Sequence record: PZ445440.1
Direction: 5' to 3' (one strand)
DNA from: a phage
Length of the DNA: 64,000 bases
This document shows, in pieces, positions 3,301-34,020 of this stretch. The position numbers and the translations under genes are program-made. Each line of letters starts with the position of its first letter. Positions within the stretch are counted from its first letter, which is position 1. The notes under the pieces are model-generated. The model was not told the origin of the DNA. It saw only the letters and a list, made by a program, of their open reading frames with translations, and ran no database searches.

Positions 3301-6012
3301 TCAAAAATCAAACATATCGAACAGAGATGCTTTCTTCTCGTAATCGAGTTTCGCTGCTGATGTGAATCCTTCAAGTGGTTTAATAAATGTCTTCTCAAGG
3401 AGAACAGTGTAGTCCATCCAATGAAGTACATCATCTTTGATTAAATCAGTGATTTCCGTACCAGAAGGCCATGCGATACATTTATCACCGAACGGGTTTC
3501 CATCACGTAAAGGCAGAACGTATACCTTTTCGCCTTCTACAACTTGTGGAGCATCAATATTACCTTTGATAGCTCGGTTATATGTCAGAATTCCACGAAT
3601 ATGGAATGGGCATTTAGGTCCTGGATATCCACCTACATCATATTTAGCAATGTTATTCGCAGAAGATACCGACGCGATGCTAATATAATTCAATTGACGG
3701 AATTCTTTTTCAAACTCTTTAAAATATTCTTGTAATGATTCTTCACCTTCTTGAAGCATACGACGAATACATTCTTTAAGAGCTTTCTGTACTGCTTTAG
3801 GGGTCGAAGATTTCTGAGTTTCTAGACCCATGATTTTGAGTTTAGGCTCAGCGTAACGAGTACCTTCCATATCCCACACGTTTAATGCATAACGTTTCTT
3901 ACCAGTCCAGAATCCACCAATACCTTTAGAACCGAGCGGAGGACCAGCGATAGCTTCTCGGTCCATGAACATTAAGTGTTGTTTATTGTTCATGTATTCA
4001 CACATTTCACGGAAACCTCTATCAATAGCAGGTTCCATACGTTCACGTGCAAACTTATCTAAGAAGTCTACCCAATGGTTGGTATCACGGAATTTAGATT
4101 CACCAACCTTATCGATAATTTTATCAGCAGATACGTAAATAGAGTCGGTATCACCATAAAGAACGAAAGCTTCACCTTCTGTACCACAAACTTCATTCAG
4201 ATATTCATTAACTTTACGTTCAATCCACTGTAAAGCCATTTGCCCAAATGTTGTGATTGCAGTAGCATTACGCAAATCATAATAACGGAACCAAACGTTT
4301 CCAAGTGCACCATAAAGTGAGTTGATAAGCAATTTACGGTTAATTTGTGCAGTCATACCTGCAACTTCAGTACGTTGAGCTCTAAACAACATTTCATTAA
4401 GAGATTTAGCAGACAACTTTTTAATCTTTTCTTTAATCTCATCACTGAAGTCGAAACGATAATCAACATCTAATGGTTCGTCAACAGAAAGATTAGGATT
4501 ATGCAATGCCTCTTTAATTATTTCACCATTACGTTGAGCTGCAAGCATGTAACCTTTATGTTCTTTACGTTGATTAAAGACCTTAGTGATTTCAGTTGGA
4601 ACTACACCATCACGGTCTTTATAATACATCATGCCGTTAGGAGAGCAACTGTACACATCTGAAGGACGTTCAGCGATTGCGTTAATATAATCATGCAGTG
4701 GAGCTACTTTAAACGTTCCTGCTATTGTTTCCGGGCTAATATTCACTTGGCGAATAATACTTGGATACAGAGATGTAAGGTCGAAACTCATTACATATTT
4801 GTATCGATTTGGAATAGGTTCCTTAACAAAAGCGCCAGGATAAGGTTGAACCGGATGAGAACGACCTTGTGGAATCACCTTGTTCTGCTCTTTAAGGCTA
4901 TTAAAAATAATAGCATCCCATGTTTTAATTGGGCTAAACACAGATTGAATCTGTATCTTAGCATAATAACCCATGTCCAAACTCAAGTTGATGAACTGAC
5001 GCTTAGCATCAATTTGCAATACACGATACACGTCGATAATGTTATAAGAAATATATCGTTGGTGATTGCTTTCACGAAGCTTAGAAATAGGGCCGTCATA
5101 TTTCAGTTTACCGACGTTCAATTCAAATTCTGAAATGTAATCCAGAGAATACGACGGTTGATTGGTAAAAGAGAATTTTTTGTAAAGGTCAATGTAATCA
5201 AGAACAGAGATACCGAACAATGTAATGATTTCACGAGAACCATACATGTTTTCGATAACTTTAACACGAGTTTTACGATGTGGTGATAAACGTTTCGCAG
5301 TAGATTCGCCAAAAATATTCTTGATTCTGTTATACACATATGGAATATCAAATGACTCAACGTTCCATCCAGTCAAAATGACAGGAGTTTTCTGTTGCCA
5401 GAAGTTGAGATATTCCATCAACAATTCTTTTTCGTTATCGAACGGCATATAAACAATTTTGTCGATAATTTCGGATGGAACTTCATCACCGCCTTGTTCT
5501 TGAAGCTTAGCAGCGATTTCAATAGACCATTCTTCTACATTACCATATGGAGAATTCAATAGATCAAATACGTAGAACCTGTCGTCAATTGAGTCATAAT
5601 GGGTGATAGCATCAATCGGATGTTTTGCTTGTGACGGCTCAGGGAACCCATCCGGAGATGTTACTTCGATGTCGAAGTTAGCCACACGAATTTTTGTATG
5701 GTCGTATTTGATTTCATAGTTATAAGTGTCAGACAAATACGCTAATTTGAAATCGTCCATGCCAAGTGCTTCAAGTCCGATATCTTCCATGCGTTTAATC
5801 CATTGTGAGGCATCACGCATATTAGCGAACAACTTACGAGTACACGGCTTACCGTAGATATCGAAATATTTCGTAGCCTGACTTTCTGGACAATGAGCAA
5901 ACAGTGATGGTTTATATTCTACTTCACGAGTACGTTCACGGCCATTAGAATCGATGTAACGTTCAAAAATTGAATCACCAATCTGTTCAACCGTTAAGTA
6001 AAATTCTTTCAT
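3301..6012 (-). CDS. 43: DNA polymerase (family B), gp43
   Basis: 903 aa; MKEFYLTVEQIGDSIFERYIDSNGRERTREVEYKPSLFAHCPESQATKYF..., DIE exo motif, YGDTDS polymerase motif; matches RB69 gp43 from memory. Confidence 0.98.
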   Translation of the reverse strand: MKEFYLTVEQIGDSIFERYIDSNGRERTREVEYKPSLFAHCPESQATKYFDIYGKPCTRKLFANMRDASQWIKRMEDIGLEALGMDDFKLAYLSDTYNYEIKYDHTKIRVANFDIEVTSPDGFPEPSQAKHPIDAITHYDSIDDRFYVFDLLNSPYGNVEEWSIEIAAKLQEQGGDEVPSEIIDKIVYMPFDNEKELLMEYLNFWQQKTPVILTGWNVESFDIPYVYNRIKNIFGESTAKRLSPHRKTRVKVIENMYGSREIITLFGISVLDYIDLYKKFSFTNQPSYSLDYISEFELNVGKLKYDGPISKLRESNHQRYISYNIIDVYRVLQIDAKRQFINLSLDMGYYAKIQIQSVFSPIKTWDAIIFNSLKEQNKVIPQGRSHPVQPYPGAFVKEPIPNRYKYVMSFDLTSLYPSIIRQVNISPETIAGTFKVAPLHDYINAIAERPSDVYSCSPNGMMYYKDRDGVVPTEITKVFNQRKEHKGYMLAAQRNGEIIKEALHNPNLSVDEPLDVDYRFDFSDEIKEKIKKLSAKSLNEMLFRAQRTEVAGMTAQINRKLLINSLYGALGNVWFRYYDLRNATAITTFGQMALQWIERKVNEYLNEVCGTEGEAFVLYGDTDSIYVSADKIIDKVGESKFRDTNHWVDFLDKFARERMEPAIDRGFREMCEYMNNKQHLMFMDREAIAGPPLGSKGIGGFWTGKKRYALNVWDMEGTRYAEPKLKIMGLETQKSSTPKAVQKALKECIRRMLQEGEESLQEYFKEFEKEFRQLNYISIASVSSANNIAKYDVGGYPGPKCPFHIRGILTYNRAIKGNIDAPQVVEGEKVYVLPLRDGNPFGDKCIAWPSGTEITDLIKDDVLHWMDYTVLLEKTFIKPLEGFTSAAKLDYEKKASLFDMFDF

Positions 6013-31973: not shown

Positions 31974-32156
31974 TTATAGTGAATTCACGTAGTCAATGAG
32001 TTCTTGTTCTTTCCTGTCAAATGATTCCAACAATGCTTGATATTCTTCATCTGTTAAAGGAGCATATTCATCATACGCATTGGTGGCCGCTTGCTCATCC
32101 AATAGGTCGTGGATAAGTTCGAACAGTTTAGTTTTCTCTTCTTTAGTCAATTTCAT
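31974..32156 (-). CDS. hypothetical acidic protein
   Basis: track ORF. Confidence 0.5.
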   Translation of the reverse strand: MKLTKEEKTKLFELIHDLLDEQAATNAYDEYAPLTDEEYQALLESFDRKEQELIDYVNSL

Positions 32157-32647
32157 TTAGGTTCCCAATCAACAATCACAATTTCTAGTTTAGTGGAATA
32201 CGTATCTAAAATCTCTTCGATGACATCCCAGTTTCCACCACCAATACCTGCACCAATTCTTGGCATATAAATTACAGGCTTTGTTATCTTATTCTTTCCG
32301 AATTCATTTAATTCTATTATACAATTCATTAAAGCATAGTACTCAAAATTAGGTCCAGGCTCAAACTGTGTATAAAGATTAAAGCAATAAGCTTTATGGG
32401 TCTTAAAATATTTTTCATAAACCGAATAAGTCCCGAGTTTAGACTCGTCTCCGAATTCGGTTTGAAGTTTATCGGCTTCCAGAATTTTTGGATAAGCCTT
32501 TGCTAATTGTCCTGCTACACCGGCACCCATTGTATGAAAACAATTACACCCATGAGCAATATTATTACCTTTAGAAAACAGGGCGACAATATCGCCCTTG
32601 ATATAGTTTTTAATCACTTGCTGCAAGTCCTCTAGTATAAGAGTCAA
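32153..32647 (-). CDS. macrodomain protein, TARG1/OARD1/DarG-like
   Basis: KGDIVALFSKGNNIAHGCNCFHTMGAGVAGQ and YMPRIGAGIGGGNW parallel human OARD1 GDLF..SLAHCISEDCRMGAGIA and SMPRIGCGLDRLQW from memory. Confidence 0.6.
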   Translation of the reverse strand: MTLILEDLQQVIKNYIKGDIVALFSKGNNIAHGCNCFHTMGAGVAGQLAKAYPKILEADKLQTEFGDESKLGTYSVYEKYFKTHKAYCFNLYTQFEPGPNFEYYALMNCIIELNEFGKNKITKPVIYMPRIGAGIGGGNWDVIEEILDTYSTKLEIVIVDWEPK

Positions 32648-32957
32648 CTAGACGGTCCACCATAGAATTGCATGCTGCCTTATCTTTAGGTTCCGCCACC
32701 GAGCATTCTAATATTTGCCATTTTTTATGATATCGTTTAATTAAGGTAGACGCCTTGAACCTACTAGACGCCCCATCTTTTTCTCCGTCTTTATATGCGT
32801 ATAACAATTTTTGTGAAAAATCTACTTTACACTCTTGACTTTTACCACAATAATCAGACGCCGTTCTGTTTGTATACTCCGTTACATCAGTATATGTAGT
32901 ATTAGCAAGAGCGTTAAATGAAACCAAGCCAACTATTAAAGCCAACATTTTGGTCAT
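32610..32957 (-). CDS. secreted small protein (signal peptide, 4 Cys)
   Basis: N-terminal hydrophobic leader MTKMLALIVGLVSFNALA; overlaps macro gene 3' end by 38 nt. Confidence 0.5.
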   Translation of the reverse strand: MTKMLALIVGLVSFNALANTTYTDVTEYTNRTASDYCGKSQECKVDFSQKLLYAYKDGEKDGASSRFKASTLIKRYHKKWQILECSVAEPKDKAACNSMVDRLVDSYTRGLAASD

Positions 32958-33496
32958 TCTTTTATTTCCAGTAGTTTATTTGATTTAAGGTAATTAGCCT
33001 TTTCTAGGACTTCAGAAGCATATTTACTTCCAGCACTTGTCTTCCATCCAGCATTATATGAGGATATAGCTTTTCTTATATCCCCGTTATGTATATTTAA
33101 CCAATAAGAAAATTCGATATAAGCCCATCTGGCTGAATTAGACCGCTTAGATAGCATTTTCTTAATTTGGGCATCAGTCATATTATAACCAAGCTGGTTA
33201 ATTCTTGCCCTCATTGTTGGTAGATAATTTTGGAACATTCCATACGCATGGTGACCTTTCTTATCTTTAAGATTAATACCGGCAGATGATTCCTGCCATA
33301 GTATTGCGGCCATTATGTATCCAAGTCCTTTCTTATGCATATTTTCATGCGTTTTAAATTTTCCGTCCTTAGAAAACTGTTCCCCAAACTGATAAGCATA
33401 ATTCAAGTTATCGAGTTGGACATTACTAAAAGTATGCTCGGAGCTATGTGCTGATAATGAAAGAGCAAATAGACCAGCGAGTAGTGCTTTTCTCAT
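32954..33496 (-). CDS. periplasmic lytic-transglycosylase-like protein (signal peptide + SLT-like)
   Basis: signal peptide MRKALLAGLFALSLSAHS; WQESSAG...YGMFQ resembles SLT catalytic E-S and GLMQ motifs. Confidence 0.5.
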   Translation of the reverse strand: MRKALLAGLFALSLSAHSSEHTFSNVQLDNLNYAYQFGEQFSKDGKFKTHENMHKKGLGYIMAAILWQESSAGINLKDKKGHHAYGMFQNYLPTMRARINQLGYNMTDAQIKKMLSKRSNSARWAYIEFSYWLNIHNGDIRKAISSYNAGWKTSAGSKYASEVLEKANYLKSNKLLEIKE

Positions 33497-33504
33497 GTTT
33501 ACCT

Positions 33505-33963
33505 CTAGATTTTAATCACTGCTTTAGAAGCTTTTCCTGGTAGTCGTTTACTGTTAATAATAGCCATTCTGCATTGAAGAGTCTTCATTTTGAATGCTGG
33601 ATTTTCGCGACAAACTGTAAGTCCTAACCAAAGATTTCCATCGGTTATTTCTAAACGGCCTGGACGGTATTCGACGCCTTCGACAAAATCTTCATCAACG
33701 TCCGGACGAGCCGGCATTGATAAAAATTCTGCAACTTCTTTAACATGATTTTTTACTTTATGAAATAATTCAAAAACGTAATTCTCATCTATTTCTCTCT
33801 GGATGGCACGATCTAAGAGATGCTGAGAATACTTGATATGAAAGCCTGGTAGTCCAAGAGACTTTGCAGCATCTTTTATACCGGCATTTATTTTGCGGAA
33901 CTCCGTTTCAAAGATTCGACGGAGTTTATTACGGCGGATAAAAACTTCCGAATTGATAGTCAT
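33505..33963 (-). CDS. regB: endoribonuclease RegB
   Basis: MTINSEVFIRRNKLRR...HLLDRAIQREIDENYVFELFHK...RLPGKASKAVIK matches T4 RegB. Confidence 0.9.
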   Translation of the reverse strand: MTINSEVFIRRNKLRRIFETEFRKINAGIKDAAKSLGLPGFHIKYSQHLLDRAIQREIDENYVFELFHKVKNHVKEVAEFLSMPARPDVDEDFVEGVEYRPGRLEITDGNLWLGLTVCRENPAFKMKTLQCRMAIINSKRLPGKASKAVIKI

Positions 33964-33970
33964 TTTGATT

Positions 33971-34020
33971 TCTCCTCTAGTTGACAAGTCTATAGTAACA
34001 CAACTAGAGGAGAAGTAAAC
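33971..34020 (-). promoter_or_regulatory. early promoter GTTTAC/TTACTAT with 13-bp inverted repeat TCTCCTCTAGTTG/CAACTAGAGGAGA; downstream arm contains regB SD
   Basis: read from sequence. Confidence 0.55.

Follow-up and report, generated by a model that had tools for sequence, protein, structure and literature searches.

Phage genes vs.1 and vs encode a predicted exported lytic transglycosylase and a small companion protein that may act as one envelope module

Why does a phage equipped with both a tail lysozyme and an endolysin encode a further, predicted early, soluble, and periplasmic murein-cutting enzyme, and what is the small protein encoded directly behind it? These questions are raised by two adjacent genes, vs.1 and vs, in a 64,000-nucleotide stretch of phage DNA (record PZ445440.1; hereafter the window). 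A first-pass annotation of the window had placed two secreted open reading frames (ORFs) at coordinates that prove to be those of real genes, leaving the strand, which is minus, unstated, and had overlooked that the pair is known. Positions 32100-34000 match Escherichia phage ChristianSchoenbein (Bas46, Mosigvirus, MZ501056) at 100% identity. The larger ORF shares 84% identity with T4 Vs.1 and matches PHROG 600 (E 3.7e-67), while the smaller shares 67% identity with T4 Vs and belongs to PHROG 1256 (E 1.8e-35) and to PF26829, an assignment precomputed for all Vs homologs. Moreover, Bas46 vs.1 and vs have regB on one side and a macrodomain gene on the other, and tk and rI follow farther downstream; the T4 order is likewise regB-vs.1-vs-tk.4. 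Family matches, identity to T4, and synteny thus identify the two ORFs as the Bas46 orthologs of T4 vs.1 and vs. Vs.1 is predicted to be an exported transglycosylase and Vs an exported protein with disulfides, and the two probably form one envelope module that is non-essential and confers a growth advantage.

Judged by profile alignment and structure prediction, Vs.1 has the fold and all three motifs of family-1 (GH23, Slt70/MltE-type) lytic transglycosylases (Table 1). The first-pass annotation had rightly noticed WQESSAG and YGMFQ as resembling the catalytic Glu-Ser and the GLMQ motif of soluble lytic transglycosylases (SLT); the third motif, S146-Y-N-A-G150, had been missed. A profile alignment with E. 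coli Slt70 (C-terminal domain) puts E69 of the E69-S70-S71 motif on precursor residue 505, which corresponds to mature Glu478, and G86-M-F-Q89 on GLMQ. The MltE alignment places E69 on Glu64 and again GMFQ on GLMQ, and in an alignment with goose-type (g-type) lysozyme E69 pairs with the Glu of the RES motif. The Slt70 and MltE alignments are statistically weak because the templates are single sequences, but they are mutually concordant and fit the fold match. Across an alignment of 38 Vs.1 sequences with identities down to 40%, E69, S71, G86, Q89, N90, Y147, N148, G150, and Y159 are invariant. The catalytic Glu is also kept in distant homologs from Felixounavirus, Ackermannviridae, and Aeromonas phages; altogether, Vs.1 homologs occur in >2000 phage records across T4-like phages, Ackermannviridae, and Felixounavirus.

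The AlphaFold (AF2) model of Vs.1 is confident, with a predicted local distance difference test score (pLDDT) of 90.5, and displays a lysozyme-like α-helical SLT fold whose best matches are lytic transglycosylases. Likewise, 35 of the 38 homologs match the Pfam SLT family (PF01464) at E < 0.01 (best E 1.3e-7), and PF01464 is a precomputed assignment on many of them. Once matured, Vs.1 would be a single bare domain of 162 residues (18.7 kDa, isoelectric point 9.6) with neither cysteine nor lipid anchor. Based on these predictions, the most fitting description of Vs.1 is that of a single-domain family-1 lytic transglycosylase that is made early and exported. This enzyme reading is correct but already known: Nolan et al. 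(2006) published the SLT match of vs.1, citing earlier PSI-BLAST results (2003 T4 genome review), and NCBI names the exact Vs.1 sequence "lytic transglycosylase domain-containing protein", as UniRef names its relatives "Transglycosylase SLT domain-containing protein". The enzyme finding therefore adds little. The added value lies in Vs, a constant companion of Vs.1 that is built like a periplasmic protein, which may surprise the specialist.

Sec-dependent export is a strong prediction for both proteins, as the first-pass annotation had proposed. Both N-termini carry a basic residue at position 2-3, followed by a hydrophobic core free of charges and by small residues at -3/-1 of the putative cleavage site: Vs.1 begins with MRK, continues with ALLAGLFAL, and carries AHS before SE, and Vs begins with MTK, continues with MLALIVGLV, and carries ALA before NT. 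A crude signal-peptide filter is passed by only 5 of the 107 ORFs in the window, the adjacent vs.1 and vs among them, and by 35/38 Vs.1 and 35/37 Vs homologs; the failures trace to gene calls that are truncated or start at the wrong site. Sequence conservation is lower in the first 18 residues than in the mature parts, while hydrophobicity is kept there, and AlphaFold confidence is low precisely in these segments. Signal-peptide-like starts are also present in all Vs homologs from 32 representative loci, divergent ones included, and in the Vs.1-like proteins of Aeromonas, Ackermannviridae, and Felixounavirus phages. One Vs clade (IMG/VR loci L041, L042, L043, and L066) carries the lipobox LSGC, and Vs would therefore be a lipoprotein there rather than a soluble periplasmic protein; the L041 homolog (3549-3875 of that locus) begins with MKKLFVLLVVFALSGCK, which contains the lipobox. 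In full-text literature searches, no mention of a Vs signal peptide came to light.

The mature part of Vs points in the same direction. After predicted cleavage, Vs comprises 97 residues (11.0 kDa, from a 12.8-kDa precursor). Its four cysteines, C37, C43, C85, and C96, are invariant in 37/37 aligned homologs and kept in divergent ones, and the C-terminal stretch CxSMVDRLVDSYNRGL is conserved in the same alignment. The AlphaFold model (pLDDT 87) consists of four helices, with each cysteine pair located at one helix-turn-helix junction. This placement suggests that the cysteines form two disulfides, and hence that Vs folds in the periplasm. Such features fit poorly with a protein that has to reach the cytoplasmic valyl-tRNA synthetase (ValRS), and they suggest a conflict with the fifty-year-old label of Vs.

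We surveyed the linkage of the two genes in 70 IMG/VR loci that encode a Vs.1 relative. In 55 of these, vs starts between -8 and +7 nt from the vs.1 stop. The tight pair is retained in Acinetobacter-type phages, where Vs.1 is 42-49% identical and regB, tk.4, and tk are no longer nearby; behind the pair, these phages have two additional ORFs with hydrophobic N-termini and then rI. Eight further loci encode a weakly Vs-like, secreted, four-cysteine ORF 0.5-1.2 kb downstream of vs.1, and in six loci no Vs-like ORF was found. A physical partnership of Vs and Vs.1 is plausible, given this coupling and the fitness profile that the two genes share. Evidence for independence comes from vs.1-like genes without vs in Aeromonas phages, Ackermannviridae, and Felixounavirus, all with signal peptides; in Felixounavirus, rIIB and a spanin gene are the neighbors on either side.

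Two individual loci show further neighbors of vs.1. In the Felixounavirus CRP22 locus (L010, 1408-1956), a secreted Vs.1-like SLT gene directly follows rIIA-rIIB and lies two genes before the i-spanin, with no vs homolog. In Acinetobacter phage Bhz15 (L007, 1438-3305), five consecutive genes have signal-like N-termini, namely vs.1, vs, a 136-residue ORF, a 99-residue ORF, and rI; from vs.1 to the lysis-inhibition gene rI, this region looks like an envelope-directed gene block.

Given published fitness data, the physiological role of Vs.1 is probably not negligible. In the HIDEN-SEQ transposon libraries of T4 and Bas37 (10.1101/2025.11.20.689424), vs and vs.1 are non-essential. In T4 grown in liquid lysogeny broth (LB), mean insertion counts are 26.6 for vs and 22.6 for vs.1, next to 289.6 for tk.4, 178.6 for regB, and 652 for vs.3. 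The independent Bas37 library displays the same dip (vs 23.5, vs.1 73.8, flanking genes ~325). Insertions in regB are not depleted, which makes strong transcriptional polarity unlikely. In M9 glucose, the log2 fold change of T4 vs is -2.19, according to the authors the strongest in the genome, and that of vs.1 is -0.87 (p 0.0055, adjusted 0.16); the main text of the preprint does not mention vs.1. Insertions in the endolysin gene e have a mean count of 2.5 in T4. Endolysin is thus still required, and Vs.1, which the first-pass annotation had correctly kept apart from it, is no spare endolysin and cannot replace e.

The same dataset (Extended Data Tables 6 and 7) contains an observation on rIII. 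Between the solid-medium library and liquid LB, rIII insertion counts fall from 139.8 to 5.7-12.9, and those of vs (103 to ~27-34) and vs.1 (76 to ~15-23) drop in the same direction. This shared drop may reflect a link to lysis timing or a normalization effect.

The alternative that survives best, which we nevertheless regard as doubtful, retains the classical assignment. Vs would be the cytoplasmic tau polypeptide that binds host ValRS, its adjacency to vs.1 would be inherited synteny, and only Vs.1 would act in the envelope. The following observations weigh against an envelope module and, for the most part, in favor of this account. The annotation "valyl-tRNA synthetase modifier" is carried in all records, and the literature credits Vs with binding the host enzyme. 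Classical genetics suggested in vivo effects on ValRS, which would be incompatible with an exclusively periplasmic Vs. Deletion of vs impairs T4 plaques specifically in minimal medium (10.1101/2025.11.20.689424), a defect that fits a role connected with translation or amino acids. Adjacency of regB and vs.1 is almost as frequent (51/70 loci) as that of vs.1 and vs, and the latter may therefore partly reflect general synteny and does not settle the matter. No co-evolution of Vs.1 and Vs emerged from a mirror-tree test covering 31 non-redundant loci (partial r 0.05, controlling for RegB and Tk); the test may be saturated, as Vs is much more divergent (mean distance 0.61 vs 0.35). For Vs itself, a fold search returned no recognizable relative, and a profile search against 1.84 billion representative proteins yielded 8 matches, all short phage proteins, with neither SLT-domain fusions nor cellular relatives. 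Additionally, the vs.1 insertion phenotype could stem in part from lost translational coupling to vs. On the enzyme side, sequence-only matches of Vs.1 to solved lytic transglycosylases are weak, and the SLT profile match that the first-pass annotation had named as a check holds for the family, whereas the window protein alone stays below the Pfam gathering threshold (18.8 bits, E 0.0013, against 21.3 bits).

A purely cytoplasmic Vs is, however, difficult to reconcile with several of its properties. Every Vs homolog starts with a signal-peptide-like segment, which in one clade bears a lipobox, and the invariant cysteines sit at helix-turn-helix junctions in a manner typical of periplasmic disulfides. 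Full-length His-tagged T4 Vs is insoluble when expressed in the cytoplasm, and the mature size, not that of the precursor, is the closer match to the reported ~10-kDa tau peptide. Moreover, vs.1 and vs stay together where all other neighbors have changed. These points lead us to prefer the envelope module.

That Vs.1 might be a hydrolytic muramidase of the goose type rather than a lytic transglycosylase is improbable. The g-type lysozymes, with whose RES-motif Glu E69 of Vs.1 aligns, carry a second catalytic Asp two positions past the conserved Gln (GLMQVD). At this position Vs.1 has no acidic residue; the invariant QN is followed by Y or L, which makes a lytic transglycosylase more likely than a hydrolase. 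The best fold matches and the Pfam placement in SLT agree with this. A search of PDB chains with the Vs.1 and Vs sequences gave no match, the Vs.1 family profile, chance matches aside (metacaspase-9, E 0.07), retrieved from the PDB no more than a weak match to g-type lysozyme, and NCBIfam has no model for either protein. The term "muramidase" used in the first-pass annotation is imprecise for a motif pattern of the transglycosylase kind.

A role of both proteins in superinfection exclusion or in resistance to lysis from without, the former suggested by the first-pass annotation, is highly improbable. Both are predicted to be periplasmic and made early, and the T4 exclusion protein Spackle is a small exported protein too. 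Nothing was found in support of an exclusion function, however, and one would expect an extra murein-cutting enzyme to make the wall weaker, not to protect it. A fold search gave no similarity to Spackle, and the fitness defect, larger in minimal medium and seen in pooled liquid culture, is not a pattern specific to exclusion. That Vs.1 is a catalytically dead murein-binding protein is the least credible option of all, as the sub-threshold Pfam score that would favor it stands against a catalytic Glu and three motifs that are invariant over the 38 sequences and a Glu that persists in distant phage homologs.

The envelope module that we favor could operate as follows. The vs.1 gene would share the transcript of regB, starting at the early-type promoter that precedes regB. 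Vs.1 would then reach the periplasm, lose its signal peptide at about residue 18, and act as a free enzyme, in which Glu69 would protonate the bond between N-acetylmuramic acid (MurNAc) and N-acetylglucosamine (GlcNAc) while the MurNAc C6 hydroxyl closes the 1,6-anhydro ring. In the pre-lysis period, Vs.1 may nick or trim the host sacculus, a possible form of peptidoglycan remodeling. Vs would be exported as well, as an ~11-kDa four-helix protein stapled by two disulfides, and might restrain or target Vs.1 or modulate the same cell-wall process. Joint action as one envelope module is the most likely, though unproven, reading of the pair. The module would be dispensable for plaques, would not replace endolysin, and would confer a measurable growth advantage that is larger in minimal medium. 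The more specific proposal, that Vs is not, or not only, a cytoplasmic ValRS modifier and instead an exported, disulfide-stapled regulator or targeting factor of Vs.1, is tentative. If true, the link between the ~10-kDa tau peptide and ValRS seen in the classical work would have formed only once cells were broken or would concern a different ORF, and the minimal-medium phenotype of vs mutants would reflect a cell-wall rather than a translation function. The transposon data rank vs as the T4 gene whose loss costs most in minimal medium, and its exported-protein build and apparent link to Vs.1 make the puzzle of its role experimentally tractable.

Table 1. Coordinates of vs.1, vs, and associated features in the window.
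Feature	Position	Strand	Remarks
vs.1 ortholog	32954-33496	minus	180-residue precursor; predicted exported single-domain SLT/GH23 lytic transglycosylase
Vs.1 signal peptide, residues 1-18	33443-33496	minus	MRKALLAGLFALSLSAHS / SEHTF; heuristic n/h/c-region analysis; pLDDT 65-69
Motif I, WQESSAG, residues 67-73	33278-33298	minus	E69 (33290-33292), putative catalytic acid
Motif II, YGMFQ, residues 85-89	33230-33244	minus	Equivalent of GLMQ; aligned to GLMQ of Slt70 and MltE
Motif III, SYNAG, residues 146-150	33047-33061	minus	Equivalent of AYNxG; paired with AAYNTG in the g-type lysozyme alignment
vs ortholog ("valyl-tRNA synthetase modifier")	32610-32957	minus	115-residue precursor; predicted small exported four-helix protein
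Vs signal peptide, residues 1-18	32904-32957	minus	MTKMLALIVGLVSFNALA / NTTYT; heuristic n/h/c-region analysis
Span of the four invariant cysteines of Vs (C37, C43, C85, C96)	32670-32849	minus	Two helix-turn-helix junctions
ATGA overlap of vs.1 stop and vs start (4 nt)	32954-32957	minus	Translational coupling
regB endoribonuclease gene, upstream	33505-33963	minus	Same transcription unit; Pfam REGB_T4, E 4.9e-69
tk.4 / AdfM macrodomain gene	32153-32617	minus	Overlaps vs stop; Pfam Macro; T4 tk.4 ortholog
Early-type promoter upstream of regB	33992-34020	minus	GTTTAC, 17-nt spacer, TACTAT; read by eye and by comparison with T4

The early timing assumed in the first-pass annotation agrees with what is known of the T4 orthologs, which have early RNA, fall into the middle protein class, and were both detected during infection by mass spectrometry. 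In the window, the promoter upstream of regB, at the position where T4 has GTTTAC-17-TATAAT, is the likely start of the regB-vs.1-vs transcript; a generic sigma-70 scan gave no promoter directly upstream of vs.1 or vs or between regB and vs. The vs.1 gene begins within 8 nt of the regB end and has a GAGG Shine-Dalgarno sequence, while vs has no good Shine-Dalgarno sequence and only the ATGA overlap.

Further signals were noted on the minus strand around the unit. A 14-bp hairpin at 33970-34020, formed by 34014-34001 and 33983-33970 (-21.7 kcal/mol, z -4.0), sequesters the regB Shine-Dalgarno sequence GGAG, and its loop contains the -10 element of the early-type promoter. The regB start would therefore be masked in transcripts that read through from upstream, but not in those initiated at the gene's own promoter. 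T4 retains both arms of this hairpin with compensatory changes. Downstream, a terminator-like hairpin at 32580-32598 (8 bp, five of them G-C, with GTTTTCT behind it) is located just within the beginning of tk.4, 12 nt past the vs stop; it could partly end the regB-vs.1-vs transcript or be a chance structure. A MotA-box-like middle-promoter pattern (TGCTTTA, 13 nt, TAGAAT) is located inside tk.4 at 32311-32336; 17 such patterns occur in the window versus 6.3 expected by chance.

Database labels at this locus are uneven. In GenBank MZ501056, the vs.1 position (bas46_0208) is called hypothetical protein and the vs position (bas46_0207) tRNA-synthetase modifier. The tk.4 ortholog is still labeled hypothetical protein in the Bas46 record; T4 tk.4 has been named AdfM, an anti-DarT2 factor, in a 2025 preprint (10.1101/2025.11.20.689424). 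Several vs.1 homologs are called "endoribonuclease" or "RegB", apparently taken over from the adjoining gene, and several vs homologs are called "valyl-tRNA synthetase" instead of modifier (examples of such label errors: MN850621 dhabil_170, OR757454, and UniRef cluster A0A6B9WQL4).

Compared with known systems, the window proteins are closest to their T4 counterparts. T4 Vs.1 (UniProt P13311, Y06E_BPT4; PHROG 600) has the same length and the same position between regB and vs and shares the signal peptide and the motifs, with no difference of substance. T4 Vs, or tau (UniProt P13310; PHROG 1256; PF26829), likewise equals the smaller ORF in length and position, and the predicted exported, disulfide-bonded topology misfits its name in T4 as it does in the window. 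Compared with the E. coli family-1 enzymes of the GH23/SLT (PF01464) type, Slt70, MltE/EmtA, MltC, MltD, and MltF, Vs.1 stands out as a bare catalytic domain of ~160 residues. It lacks a lipid anchor as well as superhelical, LysM, and substrate-binding modules, and in contrast to these host enzymes it is phage-encoded and early-expressed. Goose-type lysozymes, the GH23 hydrolases, possess additional catalytic Asp residues that Vs.1 appears to lack.

A further comparison is with the specialized small exported SLT enzymes, such as EtgA of the type III system, which open the wall for an envelope-spanning machine and are often activated by their partner in it. VirB1 and P19 are further enzymes of this kind from secretion systems and mobile elements. 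To our knowledge, no envelope-spanning machine exists for a T4-type phage early in infection. With regard to the proposed companion, a fold search revealed neither sequence nor fold similarity of Vs to Spackle, PliG, or Tsi3. The proposed arrangement, a wall-cutting enzyme together with a small periplasmic partner, would resemble known pairs: T4 gp5 lysozyme with Spackle, g-type lysozyme with PliG, and Tse3 with Tsi3.

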